A stretch of 64,000 bases of DNA, from the NCBI RefSeq assembly GCF_038025025.1, contig NW_027117340.1:682001-746000 (forward strand), written 5' to 3'. Under the pieces are notes generated by a model that saw nothing but the letters and a program-made list of their open reading frames with translations, had not been told where the DNA came from and ran no database searches. The position numbers and the translations under genes were made by a program. This document shows, one piece after another, positions 10,086-64,000 of the stretch. This DNA is from Phyllosticta citribraziliensis (taxonomy: Eukaryota). The stretch's first letter is position 1. Every line of letters starts with the position of its first letter.

Positions 10086-12155
10086 ATGGCGCTGTTTGAG
10101 CCTAGTCTTTCCCGTCACTCGTTTGCCTTTCTTTGCATAGCGTTTCTTTCCACCTTTGCCTCGGCCGACCTCAACAACGACACGTCGCCCACCTCTTTCT
10201 TCCACACTGTAAGTTTGCTGCCTCTCTGCATCGTGTGCGCCGCCTCTAATCCGCGCCTTCCAGAGACCGGAGCTCCACGCGCCGATAATACATTTTGACG
10301 TACTATGGCCCGACTTTGTCTCCCCGGGCTACATCTTTCTCGCGCCGTATCGCAACATCGATCCCGGCCCGTACATTTACGATAATTATGGCGTGCGTAC
10401 CCACCATTGAACGAGACCTACCGGTACAAAAGCTTCGACGTGAGGTCGAATGGCTAATGGTTGCACGCGCAGAACCTCGTCTGGTCCGGAGCTGGATTCA
10501 TGGGCCCCATGGTTGGCCACGCGCCCCGAGTTTGCAACTACCAGGGAAGAGACCACCTCTGCTTCTACCAGGGAGAGCAGTACCAGGGCTTCGCGCGCGG
10601 ACACGGCCTCATCGTCAACGATGAATACAGGATTGTAAAAACAGTTGAGAGCGGGGGATCTGCGGCCCAGGCAGACATGCACGAATTCCGCGTGCTACCC
10701 GACGGCAAGACGGCGCTCCTCACCGTGTACCAGACGCGGCAGTACGACCTGTCTGCCTTTGGCATCGAGGCCGGCATGGGCTGGGTGGTCGACAGCGTGT
10801 TCCAGGAGGTCGACATTGAGACGGGTGACGTCGTCTTCGAATGGCGTGCTCTGGACCACATCTCGCCTAGTTTCAGCTACACCATGCCCGACACGACCGA
10901 CACGTCTGGAACTGGACGATCCGCAGACCGGCCGTGGGATTACTTCCACATCAACTCGATTGACAAGAACGATGACGGCGACTACCTCATCTCGGCGCGG
11001 CACATGGCGGCCGTCTACAAGCTTTCAGGCGTCGACGGCCATGTCATGTGGGAGCTGAACGGCGCAAACCCCAGCTTCCACAACATCGACCTTCATTTTT
11101 CCAGCCAGCACCACGCCAGGTGGACAAAAGAAAACGGAACGCACACGCTTCTCACCTTGTTTGACAATGCCAGCAACAACTTCAACATTACGAATCCCTG
11201 GTCGCGCGGCATGGTTGTGGCCGTCAACCACATTGACAGGACGGCCTCGATGACCCAGGAGTGGTTGGCGCCAGATGCGGCGGGTGGGGTCCTGGCCGGA
11301 TCGCAGGGCAGCATCCAGACGCTCAAGGACGACCACGTCATGATTGGGTGGGGTGACCATCCATTCTTCTCGGAGCACCTCCCCACGGGAGAAGCCGTCA
11401 TGTACGGCAAGATTGCGATACCAGAATCGGGCGTCATGAACTACCGGGCCTACAAGTTCGAGTGGAAGGCGACGCCCAAGGACAACCCGGCCCTCTTCAC
11501 ATACTCGCGGACGGGGACGAGCGTGGCCGGCATGGTGTTTTACGTGTCATGGAACGGAGCAACCGAGGTCAAGGAGTGGAAGTTTTACGGCAGCAACACG
11601 GCCGAGGGACCGTGGGAGACGGTGGCGCGGGCCAACAAGACGGGCTTCGAGACGATGCTGCGCACCGAGACGGTCAGGTCGTTTGCCTTTGCGGAGGCCA
11701 TTGACCAGGAGGGCCACGTGCTCCGGCGATCGTCGGTGAGCAAGACGTTTGTGCCGTCGGCGGCGCTCATGGCGGCGTGCGATGACTACAGCTGCCAGGT
11801 GCACCCGCCGCTGGCAGAGGGGGAGAGGATCGAGGCGATGGCGCCGTTTGTCGCTGACGGTGGGGCCAACTGGGACACGGGGCTGAAGAGCAACAAGTAC
11901 TACACGCAGGCGGCCAAGACGGCGGGATCTTTCTTCCTGAGCATCGCAGGGCCGGCGGCGGTGGGGTTGGGGATTCTGCTGTTGCTGGCGATATGCCTGT
12001 ACAAGCACCGGGCGATGCGGAGCGTGTCGGGGTGGCAGAGGTCGCTGCAGCAAAAGGGAGTGGATCTGCGCGAGGTGCTGAGTCCGGGTGGGGTGCGGTC
12101 GAAGCTGCTGGGGCAAAGATATCGGCGGGTGAGCGAAGGCGAAGCTGTTGCATAG
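10086..12155 (+). CDS. Arylsulfotransferase (ASST) family beta-propeller protein with signal peptide and C-terminal TM helix; 3 exons
   Basis: Signal-like MALFEPSLSRHSFAFLCIAFLSTFASA. Spliced RPELHAP...PGYIFLAPY...GPYIYDNYG|NLVWSG. Further motifs DMHEF, WDYFHINSIDK, YLISARH, FSSQHHAR, LFDNA, SQGSIQ, YRAYKFEW, FYVSWNGATEV and KTGFET. Confidence 0.88.
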
Positions 12156-13213
12156 TACCTAGGTAGCTCAGGTCAGGTCAAACAAGGGAGCCTCAGGCAA
12201 GCAAGGCAGGGGCTGTCGGGGGGTCAGATGGAGATTGGCTTGTGGAGAAGGATTGACAGCAATTGAAGTGATGAGAGTGATGTCATGGGGGAGTCTGTGC
12301 TACCTACCTACTGACCTCGACCGGCGTGGCCGGGGGCGTGATGGTGTTGTTGTGACAAGCCGGACGGGCAGCGTAAGTCGGCGGGACGGGCGTGGCGGCG
12401 GCGGTGGTGGTGGTGGTGGTGGTGTGGTGAGGGAGGAGGGCCGACTGGGGGCTGACGGGTCGGTGCGCGGGAGGGGAGGTGAGTCTGGCAGACCAATTGG
12501 TGGACCGAATTCAGGCGGTTGGGAATATTTTTTTTTTTTTTTGGAGTTTGAAGAGAGAGGTGGGTGGCTTGGCGGGGCGTCGAGGGCGTACGCAGCGGGA
12601 ATACGTAGACGGGCCGGGGTACATGTACCTTCCGTTGGACGTGTACGTGTGGCTGAGTGTTTGTCGCCCGCTGTTGTTCTCCTGAGGGCTGAGAGCTGAG
12701 AGCTGAGGCGAGGGCGACGGAGAAAAATGTTCCTGTTACAGTATCCCAAAGTCCAGCACCGCAGGCCGTGATTGGTTTTTTGCGTGCCCGGCAGGCGTTT
12801 GTTTCAGCGGTTGACAGCGGGATTGATTTGGTTGACGCGGCCTCCTCCCCTCCCTCCCTCTTGTTCCCTGTCGCCGCCAAGACGCTCCTGAAGCAGTGAC
12901 CATGGCTTCATCCCCCCCCCCGTGTCCCCACCCGGCAACCCGTCCAGCCCAGCCCAGTTCGTCAGTTCAGGTCAGGTCTGGTCTGGTCTGGTCTGGTCGG
13001 ATCGTTCGTTTGCTGGTGCTTGTTCTCGTTCTACGCGCCTTCGGCTGGCCGCGTACTCCTGCTGCGTCTCTCCAGTCGTCGACTCGTCGCTGCTCTTTTC
13101 CGGATGGCCCTCCGCTCCAACCCACTCGACTCGACTCGTTCCTACTAGTTGGATCCGTATCCGCTCCAACCCACAGCCACTCCCACTCTTTACGCCCGCC
13201 CGCGCCCTCCACC

Positions 13214-15210
13214 ATGCGCGATAGAAACCTGTCCCAAGTCCCCGCCCAGGGCGATCCTGCAGACTCGTCCACCGGCACCAACATCCGCCAGAACCGCGCC
13301 CACCAACGTCATGGTTCCGACGTCTATCGCAGAAACAGCCTGAACTTCCAGTCCAACCCCAGCAATTCCGCCTCGCACTCGCACTCCAACTCGACCTACG
13401 GCCACTCGCGCTCCGTCAGCCTCGGCCGCCTCGAAAACTACGACGATCCCGACATGTACACGCCCGTCGAGCACTCCAAGCCGCTGCCCGCGACATGGCT
13501 CAACATGCCCCACAAGGGCCAGCTGGCCGTACTCGCCATGTCGCGCCTCGTCGACTTTTTCCAAATGGCTGCCCTGCAGACCTTCATGGTCCACCAGCTC
13601 AAGAGCTTCGATCCCACATTACCAGACTCGTCCGTCGCCCACCAGGCCGGCGTCCTACAAGGCAGCTTCACCGCTGCCCAGATTGTCACCTCGGTGCTCT
13701 GGGGTCGCGTCGCCGACCAGCCATGGTGCGGAAGGAAGAGGGTCCTGCTCGTCGGCCTGGTTGGTACCTCTGTGTCCTGCATAGGCGTCGGCTTCGCCCA
13801 AACATTCCTGCAAGCCACCGTCTGGAGGATGCTGGGCGGCGCAATCAACGGCACCGTCGGCTCTGCCCGCACAATGGTCGCCGAGACTGTTGAGAAGAGA
13901 TTCCATTCCCGCGCATTCCTGCTGCTTCCTCTTGCTTTCAACGTGGCCAACATTCTTGGTCCAGGTAAGTCCAACCGATTCCCCAGATTCCTTGGCATTT
14001 CCCTGACGCGGATTCCAGTCTTTAGCGGTCTGCTCGTAGAGCCCGTCGCCGCCTATCCCAAGCTCTTCGGTGTCGATGGTGTCTTTGGCGGAGCTACCGG
14101 CGTCCAGTGGATGGAACGCTACCCCTACGCCATGCCCAACGTCCTCTGCGCAATCCTTCTCCTCGCCGAGGCATTATTTGTCCATTTCTTCTTGCGCGAG
14201 ACCCTGGCCAGCATTCGCAACGCCAAGGTCCCATTGCCGGGCCCCTTGGACCAATTGAAATCTTTCATCTCCAGGCTCACCTCTGGACAGCCCGCCCAGT
14301 ATTCCGTCTTGGAGGACCAGTCTGACGGCCTCCTTGCCGGCGTGGATCATGATGCCATGGAAATGTCTCCGATGGGCGCCAAGTCCAGGGCGGCCAAACG
14401 TCCTCAGGTCCTCCCATTCAACCGCATTTGGACCGCCAATGTTCTCTGGGTCCTCTTATCAATCGCCATTTTCGATTTCCACATGGGGTAAGCCTGGCAA
14501 CCTCTTGCGATAGCTTCGCCGCTAACTTGTCCCCTAGCGCCTTTTCCAGCCTGTGGATCGTCTTCTTGTCCACCGACAGGCCCCAGTCGGCAATCGTTGC
14601 TCGTTACGTGAAGCGCTCGAACCCCTTCATCTTCAGCGGCGGTCTTGCTTTCGAGCCTGCGGCCATTGGCTTCGCGCTCGCCGTCCTCGGTGTCGTCGGT
14701 CTTGCGCTCCAGCTCTCGATTTACCCCTGGGCCAACTCGCGCTTCGGCCTCATGCGCTGCTTCAGATACTCGCTCTTCCTCTTCCCCTTGGCCTATTTCT
14801 TGGCGCCCTACCTGGCGCTGCTTCCCTCGCAAACTCCTGCTCCGAGCCCGGCGAGCGGTTTCTGGATTTGGATCGGCATTTCGATGATCTTGACCCTGCA
14901 AGTCTCGGCGCGCACTTTTGCCCTTCCTGCCTCGATCATCCTTCTCAACAACTCAAGCCCACATCCGAGTGTGTTGGCGACCATCCACGGCATTGGCCAA
15001 AGCGTCAGCTCCACCTTCAGGACCGTCGGCCCTATTGCGGCCGGCTACTGGTACGGTGTGGGCTTGGAAAAGGGCATCGTAGGAATGGCCTGGTGGGTAG
15101 TTGCGGCGATCTCAACCATTGGTTGCGTGGCCAGTTTCTGGGTGAGAAACGGAACCGGTCATGAGATCCTTCTGCCCGGCGAAGAGCCGCCGGAGAACAG
15201 CGAGAAATAA
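13214..15210 (+). CDS. Major facilitator superfamily transporter; 3 exons
   Basis: MFS motif A WGRVADQPWCGRKRVLLVG, RMLGGAINGTVGSARTMVAE and multiple TM helices in ORFs 12896..14491 and 14428..15210. Introns ~13965-14018 and ~14488-14537. Likely ATG at 13214. Confidence 0.88.
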
Positions 15211-19784: not shown

Positions 19785-20359
19785 GTCCAAGGATAGGCGT
19801 GAGCGTGGACTGCTATGCGAAGAATTGGAATGGGCAAAGTCGAGCGGTGCTTGATGGAGTGGAGCAGGGAGATGTTGAAGCGGGCGGCGGGAAGACGAGG
19901 TCGTCATGGCTCAAGCCAGTGCGTATCGATAAGGGCACGCCTGACTCGGCGCACCTTGCACCTTGCAAAAGCATTTGACGAACTGCTCACGCGTCACTGG
20001 CTGTTGACTATTCTCGCCATGGACGCTGGTTCCTTGTTGGGAGATGTTGAAGCGTTGAATCAAAAAAAGAGCTGACTTCTTCCACGTCTTCATCTAAGAT
20101 GGCGAGCCGCATGTTTGTCCACCCCGCGCTGGCCCGTCGAACGGCGAGCCGCAGCCCGGACGACGACGACGACCAGTGTCCGGGGTCAGCTGTCCCCCGG
20201 CACCTCGCCGCCTTGTCCACCTCCACCACCTCCGCTTCCATCGCAGTGACAACCATTCTTCCTGCCACCCTATTGCAGCTTCCACTCCTTCACCTCCTCT
20301 TGCGCCTATCGCCTTTTGGCTGGTATGCCACCCTGTTGAAGAGCCTCACCCACCTCACC

Positions 20360-21830
20360 ATGGCCAACGACCTCGGCCGCTACAGCAAGCGCATCGTCCA
20401 GTACTTCTGGGACCCCATCCCAACAAACGACGACGACGCCCCCATCTGGTGTCTGGGGAGGCGCTACGACTCGAAGCCAAGTGCCTCGCAACCCCCACTC
20501 GAGGAACCCGCGCAAACAGCCCCATCGGCACTTTCGACTTCGCATGGTTCTACGACATCATCACGGTCAGTCGGCGACGATGCCACAAGCCGAAACAGCA
20601 GCGATGAGGGCGTTGTCGTGCAAAGTGCCGACGCTCAGGATGCAGACGCCGCCGGAAGCTGGCCTCCTCAATTCTTGGATGATTTCGAGGCCCGAATCTG
20701 GCTCACGTACCGCTCCAACTTCGACCCCATTCCAAAGTCGCAGGACCCCAAGGCGGCAGCCTCTATGAGCTTTAGCGTGCGTCTGAAGAGCCAGTTGACC
20801 AACCAGTCTGGATTTTCCTCCGATACTGGCTGGGGTTGCATGATTAGATCAGGGCAAAGTCTACTGGCCAACGCTCTACAAGTACTCAAGCTCGGCAGAG
20901 GTATGGGACTCACTCCGTAGATAAAGTCATGTCTGACCATATCACCTAGACTGGCGCCGAGGGCAAGCATTAGAGGATGAACGCCCTCTGCTTTCCTTAT
21001 TTGCAGACGATCCAAAGGCTCCCTTTTCCATCCACAAGTTTGTAGAGCATGGCGCCGCGGCCTGCGGCAAGCATCCCGGAGAATGGTTCGGTCCCTCCGC
21101 AACTGCAAGATGCATACAGTAAGCAGCACCCTTGTTGGGAAACATACCCAGATGTCTAATGATTGCAGAGCCTTGACCGACAACTACGCCGAAGCCGGTC
21201 TTAGAGTTTACATTACCGGCGACGGCTCAGACGTGTACGAAGACAGTCTCATGAGAATAGCAAAGGACAGCAACGGCGTCTTTCAGCCCACGCTAGTCCT
21301 CGTTGGCATCCGACTTGGCATTGATCGTGTAACTCCCGTTTACTGGGAGGCTCTCAAAGCATCATTGCAGCTTTCTCAGTCGATTGGCATAGCCGGGTAT
21401 TTTGCCATTTTGCCAGCTTCTTTTCGGCAGCGATGCGTTACTGACAGATTGCAGTGGTCGACCGTCGGCATCTCATTATTTCGTTGGCACCCAGGACTCG
21501 CACTTCTTTTACTTGGATCCTCACAATACCCGACCTTTTTTGCCCCTGCATTCCGATGTTTCCAAATACACCGCTGAAGACATTGACTCATGCCACACGC
21601 GGCGCCTGCGGCGGCTCCACATCAAGGAGATGGATCCGTCGATGTTGATTGCATTTCTGATTCGAGACGAATCGGACTGGAGCAGCTGGAGAAAGGCCGT
21701 GACTGAGGTGCACGGCAAACCGGTCATTCATGTTGCCGATTCGGAGCCAGTCATCCACGGTGGCCAAGAGCGGGAGGGCGCCATCGACGAAGTAGAAGCA
21801 TTCGATGACGAAGACGGGGGTTTGCAGTGA
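20360..21830 (+). CDS. ATG4: Autophagy cysteine protease Atg4 (peptidase C54); 4 exons
   Basis: [41 protein letters not shown] (catalytic Cys), [17 protein letters not shown] and [11 protein letters not shown]. Confidence 0.95.
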
Positions 21831-58780: not shown

Positions 58781-59070
58781 GAATATATACTACCTATTAT
58801 AATAGTAAATTAAATAAATAAATAGATAGATAGATAGAGCTAAGAGCTAGTATAAGTAGTATTAACCTACCTAGATAGAATAGACTACTACTATAGCTAG
58901 GATAACTATTATCTAGGACACTATAATACCTTGCCTTAGATAATAGATTTATGCGCATTTAATATAACGCATCACGTTAATGTAGTGCAGAACCTGCATT
59001 CATAGTGCCATGGTGAGTAAAGGAAAGCTGGTCGTCTAACAGTTCAGAAACACTTCAGTCGAAAATTGCA

Positions 59071-60024
59071 CTAGAACAGGTACCCTCTCTCCCTCGTCAT
59101 GTCCGCCACCCACGTTCTCAAAGCTCCAAAGTCCCGACAGGTGTGTCTCCTCTCTGTCTCTCCAATGAGCAACACACTCGTCTTCTCTTCTCCATTTTCG
59201 ACAGTTTTCCACTCGGTCGCCTTGAGCGACACAGGCGTCACGTCAGCGCTGCACATGAGCGCCTCGCGGATCTGGTTGATGCAGTGATCGATGTGGACGC
59301 GCTCGAACCCAGGCTGGATCTCGTGCGAGTGCGTCTTTCCGTGTGTGGCCTCGCCGCCACCGGTGCCGTCGGTCTGGAAAAAGCTGGCATCGTCGACGTG
59401 CTTGCGCAACATGTTTAGGCAGTGCAGGTTATGCAGGACGTCCACGCCGGCGTACTTTTTGCCTTCTTTTTCCTCCAGGCCGGCAGCGTGCGGAAGGCCC
59501 GTAATGGGGTAGACATGCGGGTCGTCCCCCTTCGAGCTGTCGCGCATGCCATCAATGGCGTCAACCTCGGCGTCTGTGAGGGCAAAGTAGCGAGGTGAGG
59601 TCAAGTCGTTCCAGGCCTTGTCGCGCTCTTCCGAGGGTGGACCCACGAAGCGGGATGCCTCGGGGTCCTTGATGCCGTAAAGGGTACCATTGTCGTACAT
59701 GCGGAACGGATACTCAAACCGCCGCTCTGATGGCTCGAAGATGTGTGCTGGAACCGTGGGGAAGTCGGTGGGTGCCCGTAACGCGTTCGCCGGTTTGGAG
59801 TGGAAGACATTCCTTCCGTCAAAGAATTGGGCCACGTTGGTAAGAGCTAGGACAGCCGTGGCTATTTGCCATGGTCGCTGAGGTTTTCTCTTGAGAATTG
59901 AGAGGGGGCGGGCGTCCACGTCGTCCCGGTTCGACCTGAAGTCCTGTTCATGCTTGGAAAAGGCTGCGTCAGCCTCTGCCACGGGCAGAAGTCGGTATGA
60001 CTGATCAGAGGTGTTCTCGGGCAT
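59071..60024 (-). CDS. DUF3328 / UstYa-family oxidase (putative RiPP-modifying enzyme), ~317 aa, apparently intronless
   Basis: Two HxxHC motifs (VLHNLHCLNMLRK; VHIDHCINQIREALMCSADVTPV), FVGPPSEERDKAWNDL and C-terminal HTCRDFGALRTW form the canonical DUF3328 motif set. N-terminal hydrophobic anchor PWQIATAVLALTNVAQFF. Likely ATG at 60024 (MPENTSDQSYRLL). Confidence 0.92.
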   Translation of the reverse strand: MPENTSDQSYRLLPVAEADAAFSKHEQDFRSNRDDVDARPLSILKRKPQRPWQIATAVLALTNVAQFFDGRNVFHSKPANALRAPTDFPTVPAHIFEPSERRFEYPFRMYDNGTLYGIKDPEASRFVGPPSEERDKAWNDLTSPRYFALTDAEVDAIDGMRDSSKGDDPHVYPITGLPHAAGLEEKEGKKYAGVDVLHNLHCLNMLRKHVDDASFFQTDGTGGGEATHGKTHSHEIQPGFERVHIDHCINQIREALMCSADVTPVSLKATEWKTVENGEEKTSVLLIGETERRHTCRDFGALRTWVADMTRERGYLF

Positions 60025-60687
60025 GGTTGAGGAGAGGTGAAGAAGGCGTGTCTCTAAGATCTCTACACAGAGGAGTGTGGAAACTTTGTCAAGAAGCTGC
60101 CGCCGGACTTGCCATGTTCGGACCCGACCATAACGCGTGATGCCGAACATCGGTGGAGAGATCAGGCCTTCCCCCGCAAACGAACACGAGGTTGTCTTAT
60201 CAGATCATCGTTGCCAGTAACTGGAATGGCCAAGGAGATCCACTGTACACGTTAGAGAAATGCACCAAATCACCAACCACCAGCGCGACCTGCCCATTCG
60301 AGTCAGGAACCCGAAATGTTCGGGCTTGGCACCGTCATTGGCCTGAGCGGTCCGAGCTTGGCGTTCGGCGGTAAGCCGCCCTGGCAGCAGCCGTCACCCG
60401 GAGCCTATCTGATTCGGGTAGCGTTATCTGATCATTACCGCAGTGAGATTCTTAATTCAAGCTTCAACTTAAGCATGGGTCTCGCCTGGCTCTTGAATCG
60501 CCGTGACCGTCATCAGAGGAGTGCCCGGAGCCATTTTGAAAAGCCGATTGGAAAACTCCGGCTCTAGGACTCACGGGTGCATTTGCACACAGGTATATCA
60601 GACCATGATCTTTCGCCATCAGGTCGAGCCATTGCGCTCTCAGTTCCTCTCAACAGCCTCAGCAACCTCGCCGCCTCAAAAGTCAAG
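60025..60687. promoter_or_regulatory. Shared divergent promoter of the DUF3328 and precursor genes
   Basis: 663 bp between head-to-head ATGs. CCCGGAGCC at 60397 and 60524, inverted CTCCGG at 60556, TATA-like GTATAT at ~60593. Confidence 0.5.
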
Positions 60688-61629
60688 ATGAAGTTCCAGA
60701 TTTCCATCGTTGCCGCCCTCGGTATGTCCGCCTTCCACGTCGGCTCCATTCCCCTTGGCACTGGATCTCAATTTCTGACACATTTTCAGCTGCCGGCGTC
60801 ATGGCCGCTCCCGTCCCCGACGGTCCCATGTAAGTGTTCAAGAACAACCAAAGGTTTTTCCATTGCTGACCAAACCAGCTGCGTTGGCGGTGGCACCTCG
60901 TGCGTCAAGGCCCGTGACACTAGGGTTGAGAAGCGCGACGGTCCCATCTGCGTTGGTGGCGGCACCTCGTGCGTTAAGGCTCGCGACGGCCCCATCTACA
61001 TTGACCCTGAGGTTGAGAAGCGTGATGGTCCTATCAACATCGACACCACCACCAACGAGAAGCGCGACGGTCCTATCTGCGTTGGCGGCGGCACCTCATG
61101 CGTTAAGGCTCGCGACGGCCCCATCTACATTGACCCTGAGGTCGAGAAGCGTGATGGTCCTATCAACATCGACACCACGACCCATGAGAAGCGCGACGGT
61201 CCCATCTGCGTTGGCGGCGGTACCTCGTGCGTCAAGGCGCGCGACGGTCCCATTTACATTGACCCTGAGGTCGAGAAGCGCGACGGCCCCATCTACATCG
61301 ACCCTGAGGTCGAGAAGCGTGACGGCCCCATTTGCCTTGGTGGCGGCACCTCCTGCGTCACTGGCAAGGCCAAGCGCGAGGCTGAAGCTGAGGTCGAGAA
61401 GCGCGACGGTCCTATCTGTGTTGGCGGCGGCACTTCGTGTGTCAAGGCGCGTGACGGCCCCATCTACATTGACCCCGAGGTTGAGAAGCGTGATGGCCCC
61501 ATCTGCTTGCCTGGAAGCACCAGTGTCTACTGCAACAAGAAGCGCGCGGCCGAGGCCGAGGCTGAGGTCGAGAAGCGCGACGGCCCCATCTGCCTCGGCG
61601 GCGGCCTCTCGTGCGTCACTGGCAACTAA
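60688..61629 (+). CDS. Secreted Kex2-processed repeat protein (KEP), putative dikaritin RiPP precursor, 274 aa; exons 60688-60721, 60790-60829, 60879-61629
   Basis: Introns 60722-60789 (GTATGT..CTGAC..CAG) and 60830-60878 (GTAAGT..CTGAC..CAG) splice to give signal peptide MKFQISIVAALAAGVMA-APVP and restore a perfect first DGPICVGGGTSCV unit. Fifteen DGPI-initiated units follow, separated by KR/KAR/KKR, with EAEAEVE spacers. Confidence 0.9.
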   Translation: MKFQISIVAALGMSAFHVGSIPLGTGSQFLTHFQLPASWPLPSPTVPCKCSRTTKGFSIADQTSCVGGGTSCVKARDTRVEKRDGPICVGGGTSCVKARDGPIYIDPEVEKRDGPINIDTTTNEKRDGPICVGGGTSCVKARDGPIYIDPEVEKRDGPINIDTTTHEKRDGPICVGGGTSCVKARDGPIYIDPEVEKRDGPIYIDPEVEKRDGPICLGGGTSCVTGKAKREAEAEVEKRDGPICVGGGTSCVKARDGPIYIDPEVEKRDGPICLPGSTSVYCNKKRAAEAEAEVEKRDGPICLGGGLSCVTGN

Positions 61630-61899
61630 ATACGCCACTCGAGAGAGCACCGGCATTGACAACAGTCGTGGCGCAGCGTGGCATCTCTTCGCTGTTCTGA
61701 GAGGACCCTTTCGGAGAATTTTGGGAGGGAATAGACAGGCTGCAATGTCTAGACCTAACACTAAAACATCTAATGGCAGTATTAGAGCAAGAGATCTAAG
61801 GGGAGGAAGTGTCTTTATAGTCTACAACAATTGTACACATCTAGGCACCTTTTAAAATGCTAGCTTCGTCTATCACTTCTTGATTGCCCTATAGTGACC

Positions 61900-64000
61900 T
61901 TTACCTTCTATCCCTTTACTTCTAGCGAATTTTAGATAGATGGGAGGGGAGGTTTTTTTTTTAAAAAAAAATAAAAAAGGTAAGTAGGGGTAGAGAGGCA
62001 TAGGCACATATTTAGTAAAGCTATAGAAGCTATTTCTTCTTCTTTATAGGATATAATAATCTAACTAGATATTTATAGTACTAATTTAGGTATAAGAGTT
62101 ATCCTATTTCTTAGGCTATCTATATAGCTAAAGTACCTATCTCCTATAACTACTAAGCTTACTAAGCTTACCCTTAGTATCTAATAGCTATAGTAGATCC
62201 CTATAGAATCTACTACTATAGGTAGTAGCTAAAGTAGTTTATAGATACTCTTACCTATATCTACTATCTAGCCCTCTATTATATACTTAATTAATCTATA
62301 TACTTAATCTATATACTAAAATCTATAAACCTAATCTATATACTAATCTACTAAACTATAGTAAAAGGAGGGAAAGGAAATAGGGGGAATTTTACTTATT
62401 ATTATTATCTATTACTATCTACTCTAGATTCTTCTCTTATTTACCTCTAGTATCTAAGAGGTAGGAGCCTATAACTATAGGATCCTACTCTAATCTAATC
62501 TTAGCTATAGTATTATTATCCTAAGACTATTTACTACTTAAGTACTTAGATTATAACTAGTTATTATTATTATTATTAATTACTCTATTAACCTTATATA
62601 TTATACTATTCTTATTATTCTTATCTATAGTACTATTAGTATTAGACTTATCTTTATTATTATATAGGTTAGTTAAGGCTAATATCTTATTTTTAAGATT
62701 AATATTTTCTCTACTATCTATTATACTAGGGTATTATATTATAGATAGAAGTACTAAGGGTCTACTAATCTAGGGTTACTTAGAGCTAGGCTTATTAGGT
62801 CTAGGTACTAGCTTAGTCTTTATAGGCTACTTCTTCTTAGGCTTAATTATAGTTATAGAGGTCTTAGAATTCTTACTCTTAGGATTCTTACTATTATTAG
62901 TCTTTAAGCTATATTATAGTTTATTACTTAACTTCCTAGATCTAGTTATACTAGTAAATATACCCTAGTAGTATAGTATAGGTATTATAAGGCTAGATTT
63001 ACTAGGTATTATACGCTATATAGCGCGTATAGTTTATATTTTATAGTATTTAGTACTTAGTATTTACTACTTATATATATACTGGCTATTTATACTAGCT
63101 AAGGAGTAGATAGTTATTCTATATAGGCTATATAATAACTACTCTTACTCCCTACCTATTAATTATTAGTAGTCTATATTAATTTACTCTACTAGGTACT
63201 ATAATACTATTAATAGGTCTCTTACTACTTATAAGAGGATAAGACTTATTATCTATCCCTTACTAATAAGTTTTCTTACTTTAATTATGCCCTATATAGT
63301 ATTAGGATAAAATACTATATATTTAGATATACTAGAAGCTCTAGGTATTATTATTATTTATAGTTATAGCCTTAGATAAGGCTAGTAAGTAAGATTATAA
63401 GCTATTATAGCTCTAGATATAATAGAGACTTATTATCTTATTATATAATATAGTTAGGAACCTATATAATAGCTAAGAGTAGCTAGTCTACTAGTAGTAC
63501 TAAGCTATTAGCTACCCTCTAAATAATACTAATAGCTAGCTAGTAGTTAGCTACTACTAGCCTATTATCTACCTAACCTATTACCTTAGTAGGTAATAAT
63601 AATAATAAACTACCTATTACTACTACTATTCTAATAATATAATAGCTCTAGGAGTAGGTCCTAGGACTTGTATAGGTAATTTATAATAGGGGTAATATAC
63701 TAGGCTATAAGGTCTAGTACTAGTTTACTAATCCTAAGTACTAGTCTAGTAGTAGCTCTTATAAGGACTATTATATATAGTATAGTAGTATTAAGGATAA
63801 GCGATTATTTAATACTTATTATAAGCTAATAGATTACCTAATTAGTAGATAGTTTCTAAGTAACTATTTACCTTATACTAGGGTATATAAGTATAGGAGA
63901 TAATACTAAGTAAGAGAGTATATAAATAAGATAGAAGTTAAATTAGTACTAAGTCTACTTAGGAGTATTAATTATAAGAAAATAAAGATAGCTATCTATA
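61900..64000. repeat. AT-rich RIP-degraded repeat DNA, continuing beyond the window; includes copy 2 (~63011-63814) of the 27.7-28.5 kb repeat
   Basis: Same TpA-saturated composition as the main block; direct similarity to 27681-28480. Confidence 0.9.

Follow-up and report, generated by a model that had tools for sequence, protein, structure and literature searches.

Head-to-head genes for a DUF3328 oxidase and a DGPI-repeat precursor form a putative dikaritin-type locus in Phyllosticta citribraziliensis

A stretch of 64,000 nucleotides of the Phyllosticta citribraziliensis genome (NCBI RefSeq assembly GCF_038025025.1, contig NW_027117340.1, positions 682,001 to 746,000 of the forward strand), hereafter referred to as the window, was analyzed, and all positions given below are those of the window. 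Near its right end lies a GC-rich island (59.0 to approximately 61.9 kb, 2.9 kb in length, GC content of 0.55–0.58), which carries two divergently oriented genes: (i) a UstYa/DUF3328 oxidase gene on the minus strand and (ii) a gene encoding a repeat precursor on the plus strand. The original prediction, made from the sequence alone, had described these as the only two genes of the island and had interpreted them as a new, two-gene system producing peptides that are made on ribosomes and modified after translation (RiPPs). The observation was confirmed in every detail, while the interpretation was partly supported: the gene pair probably represents a fungal RiPP locus of the dikaritin type in a Phyllosticta species, a reading that we hold with moderate confidence.

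The structure of the precursor gene was examined with contigs from four public runs (X1, X2, X4 and X6), which were placed on positions 59000–61900. X1, X2 and X6 represent three studies and two organism codes, and their run type (RNA) is only a guess, none of the runs being recorded as RNA. The gene consists of three exons and its spliced product has 274 aa. Exon 1 (60688–60721), encoding the start of a predicted signal peptide, ends at a contig joint found in X1, X2 and X6 (60720/60789, cut +1); it is followed by intron 1 (60722–60789, 68 nt), exon 2 (60790–60829), which encodes the end of the predicted signal peptide, the residues APVP and the first residues of the initial DGPI unit, intron 2 (60830–60878, 49 nt) and exon 3 (60879–61629), which encodes the DGPI repeat array and contains the stop codon. 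Both introns are confirmed by one contig each in X1, X2 and X6 that skips exactly these two segments, with GT..AG ends, and intron 1 is retained in a DNA-like contig of X4 (contig 19). The 3′ untranslated region (UTR; 61630–61875) has a probable poly(A) site near 61875, weakly indicated by a single X1 contig that stops at 61875 and continues with non-templated A residues. Spliced joints, adaptor ends and the A-tail in X1 are most simply explained by a cDNA origin of these contigs. For the plus-strand gene, transcription and splicing are shown, and the encoded protein has a hydrophobic N-terminus followed by 15 DGPI units. As a side observation, both introns (68 + 49 = 117 nt) are in frame and stop-free, and the unspliced reading is one open reading frame (ORF) of 313 aa; an ORF-based annotation would yield a wrong N-terminus lacking a clean signal peptide.

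The precursor begins with MK, a hydrophobic stretch of approximately 14 residues and the residues AAPVP. Each of its 15 units starts with DGPI, and three kinds can be distinguished: (i) eight Cys-type units (DGPICVGGGTSCV and variants, following the pattern DGPIC[V/L]GGG[T/L]SCV), one variant being DGPICLPGSTSVYC; (ii) five Tyr-type units (DGPIYIDPEVE); and (iii) two Asn-type units (DGPINIDTTT[N/H]E). The unit boundaries are EKR, KKR, KAKR or KAR, and two spacers (EAEAEVEKR and AAEAEAEVEKR) resemble those of the alpha-factor precursor. In the whole protein there are 16 Cys, 6 Tyr and no Trp residues. Its predicted nature as a KR-delimited repeat protein was borne out by Tandem Repeats Finder, which reported a period of 129 nt in 3.4 copies with a score of 652. 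Division of the protein at KR gives four identical fragments of 29 aa, two of 14 aa and single fragments of 13, 19, 18, 9 and 11 aa. Kex2-processed repeat proteins (KEPs) have been defined as having three or more tandem repeats, each of 8 aa or longer, between KR, KK, RK or RR, with none exceeding 100 aa (PMC7329392), and the precursor has repeats of this kind.

Copies of the same peptide are not identical at the nucleotide level. Pairwise differences amount to 3–6 of 39 nt among the four identical Cys units and to 1–4 of 33 nt among the five identical Tyr units; over the 16 pairs of same-peptide copies there are 1–6 differences per pair, all of which are synonymous by construction. Since identical units differ only synonymously, this pattern points to selection acting on the peptide units themselves and not merely to recent duplication. 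In one X4 contig, which comes from a relative, the segment between 60910 and 61306 is replaced by 35 other letters, which suggests that close relatives differ in how many repeat units they have and in what these contain.

The oxidase gene (59071–60024, minus strand) is a single exon encoding 317 aa (P0001). The check that had been proposed for this protein, a profile search against Pfam PF11807 (UstYa), gave a match with an E-value of 5.5e-35 and 121.7 bits (gathering score 25), spanning residues 56–306 of the protein and positions 16–217 of the 220 in the profile. The gene is intact, with two HxxHC motifs (HNLHC at residues 198–202 and HIDHC at 244–248), and Cys residues are located at positions 202, 248, 258 and 296. 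In an alignment of nine sequences (P0001 and eight homologues), the six motif residues, C258 and C296 were invariant. The motifs are separated by 41 residues, a spacing lengthened by a His/Gly-rich loop, which could supply extra metal ligands. The Phyllosticta oxidases share two clade-specific inserts, corresponding to residues 173–190 (18 aa, before the first motif) and 212–240 (the His/Gly-rich loop) of P0001; both are absent from the four distant homologues in the alignment. Residues 52–70 align with the hydrophobic segments of homologues and are helical in an AlphaFold2 model of low confidence (mean predicted local distance difference test score of 41.4, predicted template modelling score of 0.37, 9-row alignment). 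A profile search of the Protein Data Bank gave no matches at E ≤ 1.

The start codon of the oxidase gene is ambiguous. The ATG at 60024 gives the 317-aa form, while an in-frame upstream ATG at 60150, which falls within the X2 transcript contig, gives a form of 359 aa (P0011) that is the one recorded in the protein collection. The orthologues are conserved from the Met of 60024 onwards, and their models start at varied upstream Met codons. The oxidase shares 96% identity with its orthologue in P. citrichinensis, 87–88% with those of P. citriasiana, P. citricarpa and P. paracitricarpa, and 85–86% with that of P. capitalensis; outside the genus, the next best protein, from Aspergillus wentii, is 33% identical. 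These identities place the window in a Phyllosticta species closely related to P. citrichinensis. A metagenome scan with the alignment of the Phyllosticta oxidases found four distant loci (32–55% identity) on short contigs, none of them with an ORF containing at least four KR sites or DGPI, and was uninformative.

As predicted, the two genes are divergent, with 663 bp between the ATG of the oxidase (60024) and the start of the precursor (60688). The intergenic region (60025–60687) is predicted to contain the 5′ UTRs of the two genes together with a promoter that they share. Transcript-like contigs extend into it to 60370 from the oxidase side and to 60490 from the precursor side; contig ends are not RNA ends, and this reach from both sides suggests a short shared promoter. 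The oxidase ORF is covered by unspliced contigs without a joint in X1 (59000–60063, continuing 102 nt beyond 59000) and in X2 (59043–60370), so that both genes are present as transcript-like contigs in these two runs, which come from two studies. Gaps in coverage (X6 over the oxidase gene, X1 and X2 over part of the intergenic region) were not used as evidence. A candidate cis-element shared by the two genes is the pattern TATCWGATY (TATC[A/T]GAT[C/T]), whose opposite strand contains a GATA core: three matches lie in the 663-bp region, between 60198 and 60433, and one elsewhere in the 64 kb, although the pattern was chosen post hoc and its four matches in the whole window compare with approximately 2.8 expected.

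The fourth run, X4, which has another organism code, is DNA-like and apparently contains several relatives: its 53 pieces fall into the identity bands of 99+, 95–99, 90–95 and <90% with 8, 17, 15 and 13 pieces, respectively. Contig 19 of this run (931 nt, 20 differing letters) bridges positions 59989–60918, i.e. the start of the oxidase gene, the intergenic region, both retained introns and part of exon 3. Because this contig bridges both genes, the head-to-head pairing exists in at least one close relative.

The surroundings of the island are different in composition. The GC content is 0.51–0.63 up to approximately 27.3 kb and falls to 0.23–0.33 up to 59 kb; beyond the island it is 0.26 (62–64 kb), and the DNA is again AT-rich to the end of the window. 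Repeat-induced point mutation (RIP) has left its marks in both AT-rich blocks. In the left block (27400–58950) the GC content is 0.273, TpA/ApT is 1.78 and (CpA+TpG)/(ApC+GpT) is 0.17, while in the right block (61950–64000) the respective values are 0.262, 1.86 and 0.03; in the island the two indices are 0.58 and 1.16. The composite RIP index reaches 1.61 in the left block and 1.83 in the right one, and over 33 kb of strongly RIP-marked DNA surrounds the island. Since these marks are found in the flanks and not in the island, the latter is intact DNA amid degraded repeats. A similar setting, with genes placed between AT-rich repeat blocks, is known from Epichloe genomes.

The claim that the island holds only two genes was upheld, as the ORF list and a Pfam scan revealed no further long ORF with family support in it. 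No tyrosinase, methyltransferase, transporter or regulator gene was found in the island, as had been stated, and no other candidate substrate gene was found in the island, in the 32 kb to the left or in the 2 kb to the right, where the window ends. The left AT-rich block separates the island from housekeeping genes at 1–27 kb. Eighteen long ORFs, chosen from the 78 ORFs of at least 120 aa at 1–27.5 kb, were scanned against Pfam and matched Gaa1 (1157–2557), SprT-like, arylsulfotransferase (10458–12155), followed by a major facilitator superfamily (MFS) transporter (12836–14491), R3H/G-patch, Atg4-type peptidase C54 (two ORF pieces, 20051–21577), histone H2A and 2-oxoacid dehydrogenase E2 (at the border of the AT-rich block), or nothing. 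Neither a tyrosinase, a methyltransferase nor a RiPP-cluster regulator was seen among these 18 ORFs.

Relatives of the precursor are scarce. A word-indexed protein search gave one match at E ≤ 1e-3 among 8000 scored candidates, namely Sclerotinia borealis ESZ95866.1 (32% identity, E-value of 2.9e-9, confined to the repeats), and an exhaustive HMMER search of 1.84 billion representative proteins gave 11 matches at E ≤ 1e-3. Five of the latter (P0018, P0022, P0023, P0025 and P0026) were rejected as homologues, their sequences being those of unrelated repeat proteins; P0019, P0020, P0021, P0024 and P0027 were left out of the inspection. Sub-threshold matches of the precursor to DUF6299, Cthe_2159 and MocE_fam_FeS (Pfam, NCBIfam) were taken as repeat or composition artefacts, and the ESM Atlas yielded no usable match. 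The S. borealis protein appears to be the only plausible look-alike of the precursor and was treated as such and not as a homologue. A search with it retrieved three Sclerotiniaceae relatives (including proteins of Botrytis porri and S. trifoliorum), all with a hydrophobic C-terminal tail. The members of this family (P0002 and P0028–P0030) are secreted proteins with KR-flanked [D/Q][G/S]PI[N/D]L[I/V]-[Q/E]L units and that tail. ESZ95866.1 has been listed as KEP type 172 (Table S2 of PMC7329392); like the precursor, it and its relatives have KR-flanked units starting with DGPI[DN]L/I, but they lack Cys-type and Tyr-type units, whereas the precursor ends in a DGPI unit and has no hydrophobic tail.

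No Phyllosticta protein was among the precursor matches of the word-indexed or the exhaustive search, yet the adjoining oxidases from several Phyllosticta genomes are in the collection; the precursor gene is therefore probably unannotated in public protein sets, despite its transcript contigs. The statement that its cores differ from known ones held, as the DGPI core motifs were found neither in published text nor, convincingly, in the protein databases searched. Literature searches found no paper that treats Phyllosticta together with DUF3328 or with a pheromone precursor, and the supplements of two KEP surveys, as searched, list neither Phyllosticta nor Guignardia and do not contain DGPI. 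The word RiPP is absent from a comparative genomics paper on Phyllosticta (PMC9073689), and a P. ampelicida paper refers to fungal RiPP clusters solely when counting them across pathogens of grapevine (PMC12506662).

What is new at this locus is not its architecture. Among the 7878 KEPs identified in a survey of 1461 assemblies, 1758 (22%) had DUF3328 within their 15 nearest genes, most often directly next to the KEP gene, and of 9399 DUF3328 counts 31.8% lay no more than 15 genes from a KEP (Umemura 2020, PMC7329392). In the same survey, 65.6% of the repeats in DUF3328-neighboured KEPs contained Tyr, and a DUF3328 neighbour was lacking for 98.6% of the 216 putative pheromone KEPs. Dikaritins are recognised as a class by a DUF3328 protein with a double HxxHC motif (PMC12048977), and DUF3328 proteins are required for the cyclisation of ustiloxin, asperipin-2a, phomopsin and epichloecyclins (PMC7329392, PMC10540207, PMC6514808). 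The term "new system" used in the original prediction is thus too strong, since a KEP gene beside a DUF3328 gene is the known dikaritin-type layout, seen here head to head; the architecture is already known, while the cores and the precursor family are unreported.

Within this class, one close counterpart is the four-gene asperipin-2a cluster of Aspergillus flavus (aprA, aprY, aprR and aprT), which likewise combines a Kex2-repeat precursor with a single DUF3328 gene and has no tyrosinase or methyltransferase (PMC6514808, PMC7329392). It differs from the island, however, in having a reductase and a transporter gene and a Tyr-rich core (FYYTGY), while the DGPI-headed cores mostly lack Tyr. The ustiloxin and phomopsin clusters also pair a signal-peptide precursor with KR-flanked cores and UstYa-family double-HxxHC proteins, but they contain 2–5 DUF3328 genes, tyrosinase, methyltransferases and more, with YAIG and YVIPID cores; the island has neither of the tyrosinase and methyltransferase genes that mark this subtype. 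The epichloecyclin cluster (gigA, the DUF3328 gene gigB, gigC and kexB; PMC10540207) resembles the island in its multi-core precursor and one DUF3328 gene, and differs in its dedicated methyltransferase and subtilisin and its INFKIPYT-type cores. At the level of the enzyme, the comparison is with the cyclochlorotine hydroxylase CctR, the biochemically characterised DUF3328 enzyme, a membrane-bound, disulfide-linked homodimer with binuclear copper in HxxHC(x)nHxxHC, which needs O2 and electrons (PMC12435403); the same copper and O2 dependence is cited there for the dimers ApnU and AprY. CctR shares with P0001 this motif arrangement, conserved downstream Cys and an N-terminal region followed by one hydrophobic helix, which is putative in P0001, while it acts on a non-ribosomal peptide and P0001 has the 41-residue spacer, the 18-residue insert and a weaker helix.

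If the locus is of the dikaritin type, as we consider probable, the following pathway may be proposed. The pre-protein would enter the endoplasmic reticulum, by analogy with KEPs, and signal peptidase together with a Ste13-type dipeptidyl aminopeptidase (acting on AP-VP) would expose the first unit. Golgi Kex2 would cleave after KR or KKR, and possibly after KAR, and Kex1-type trimming would strip the basic tails, giving peptides of approximately 11–13 residues of three kinds (Cys-x6-Cys, Tyr-containing and Asn/Thr-rich). The DUF3328 protein would be a lumen-facing, O2-dependent binuclear-copper enzyme similar to CctR and AprY, which oxidatively modifies the DGPI peptides before secretion. Its action on these peptides is inferred from the adjacency of the genes, the presence of transcripts of both in the same runs and the known roles of the family. 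The site may be guessed to be either the DGPI-x-[I/V/L] head common to the units or the Tyr unit, and the chemistry to be C(sp3)-H activation leading to an ether cross-link, a hydroxylation, a desaturation or a halogenation. A bolder version, in which a single DUF3328 enzyme reads the DGPI-x-[I/V/L] head and installs a Tyr-independent modification on all three core types (for example, a C-H functionalisation of Pro/Ile or a Cys-derived cross-link), making the locus a truly two-gene pathway and a new RiPP subclass, seems to us clearly unlikely. The two-gene pathway claimed by the original prediction does not follow from a two-gene island, as helper genes could lie elsewhere and processing by Kex2, Ste13 and Kex1 is unlinked in any case.

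Several points weigh against the dikaritin-type reading. The relation between oxidase and substrate is putative, as is the chemistry of the product. Of the co-expression and splicing that had been proposed as a check, splicing was established, while the transcripts of both genes in X1 and X2 attest presence and are not proof of co-regulation. Evidence of linkage is limited to very close relatives; outside the genus, the linkage of such precursors to DUF3328 genes was not borne out, the only look-alike, ESZ95866.1, having no DUF3328 gene nearby according to the survey (PMC7329392). Tyr occurs in 6 of the 15 units (the five DGPIYIDPEVE units and one Cys-type variant) and is lacking in the other nine, whereas all the dikaritin cross-links cited in the literature examined are formed via Tyr. 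Five Cys units end with KAR, which is outside the KR/KK/RK/RR set of the KEP definition. The hydrophobic segment expected to anchor P0001 in the membrane is weak, with a best Kyte-Doolittle 19-residue mean of 0.87 (residues 52–70). Finally, DUF3328 proteins serve non-ribosomal pathways too, e.g. that of cyclochlorotine (PMC12435403).

The main alternative, which we regard as doubtful, is that the peptides are secreted unmodified, at most with disulfide-closed Cys-x6-Cys loops, as effectors, signals or antimicrobials, and that the DUF3328 enzyme has another substrate; the two small genes would then be neighbours because both survived in a region degraded by RIP, or simply because they are regulated together. 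The nine units without Tyr fit this explanation, as do the eight units that could close by a simple disulfide with no dedicated enzyme, and the involvement of DUF3328 enzymes in non-ribosomal peptide synthetase pathways (PMC12435403) makes another substrate conceivable. Moreover, 78% of the surveyed KEPs, like the S. borealis look-alike, have no DUF3328 gene nearby (PMC7329392). The same survey shows that DUF3328 genes are strongly enriched next to KEP genes, and this, together with the direct head-to-head adjacency across a short promoter region common to both genes, the persistence of the pair in a relative and the lack of another candidate substrate gene in the island, 32 kb leftward or 2 kb rightward, argues against this alternative.

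A second alternative is an uncut secreted or wall-associated repeat protein, as in the Sclerotiniaceae look-alikes, with incidental KR sites. It draws on the similar KRDGPI[DN]L units of the proteins from S. borealis, Botrytis porri and S. trifoliorum, whose hydrophobic tail appears typical of glycosylphosphatidylinositol-anchored wall proteins. The precursor lacks such a tail and ends in a DGPI unit, basic sites bound every unit, and the exact peptide units are kept with synonymous drift; moreover, the E-value of 2.9e-9 comes from a match of repeat against repeat and may be inflated. EAEA-type spacers, as in the alpha-factor precursor, typify processing by Kex2 and Ste13 and also count against an uncut protein, which we consider very unlikely. 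An alpha-type mating pheromone precursor is extremely improbable: a multi-copy, KR-flanked precursor with EAEA-type spacers and a Cys-x6-Cys spacing does recall ascomycete alpha pheromones, but the consensus of the latter has Trp flanking the Cys residues (W-C...C-W) and the precursor has no Trp, there was no Pfam match to MF_alpha or MF_alpha_N, the units are of three different types, and the surveyed pheromone KEPs, as given above, almost all lack a DUF3328 neighbour.

Precursor–DUF3328 pairs have already been predicted in thousands, and this locus extends the list and opens no new category. It draws attention to an abundant transcript for which public Phyllosticta protein sets seem to lack the gene, and is therefore relevant to cataloguing the secreted peptides and secondary metabolism of a genus that includes citrus pathogens. 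If the oxidase modifies the DGPI peptides, the locus would join the small number of DUF3328 systems that can be studied, as a compact precursor–enzyme pair, and, with cores that are mostly without Tyr, could reveal new chemistry for this recently defined family of copper enzymes.

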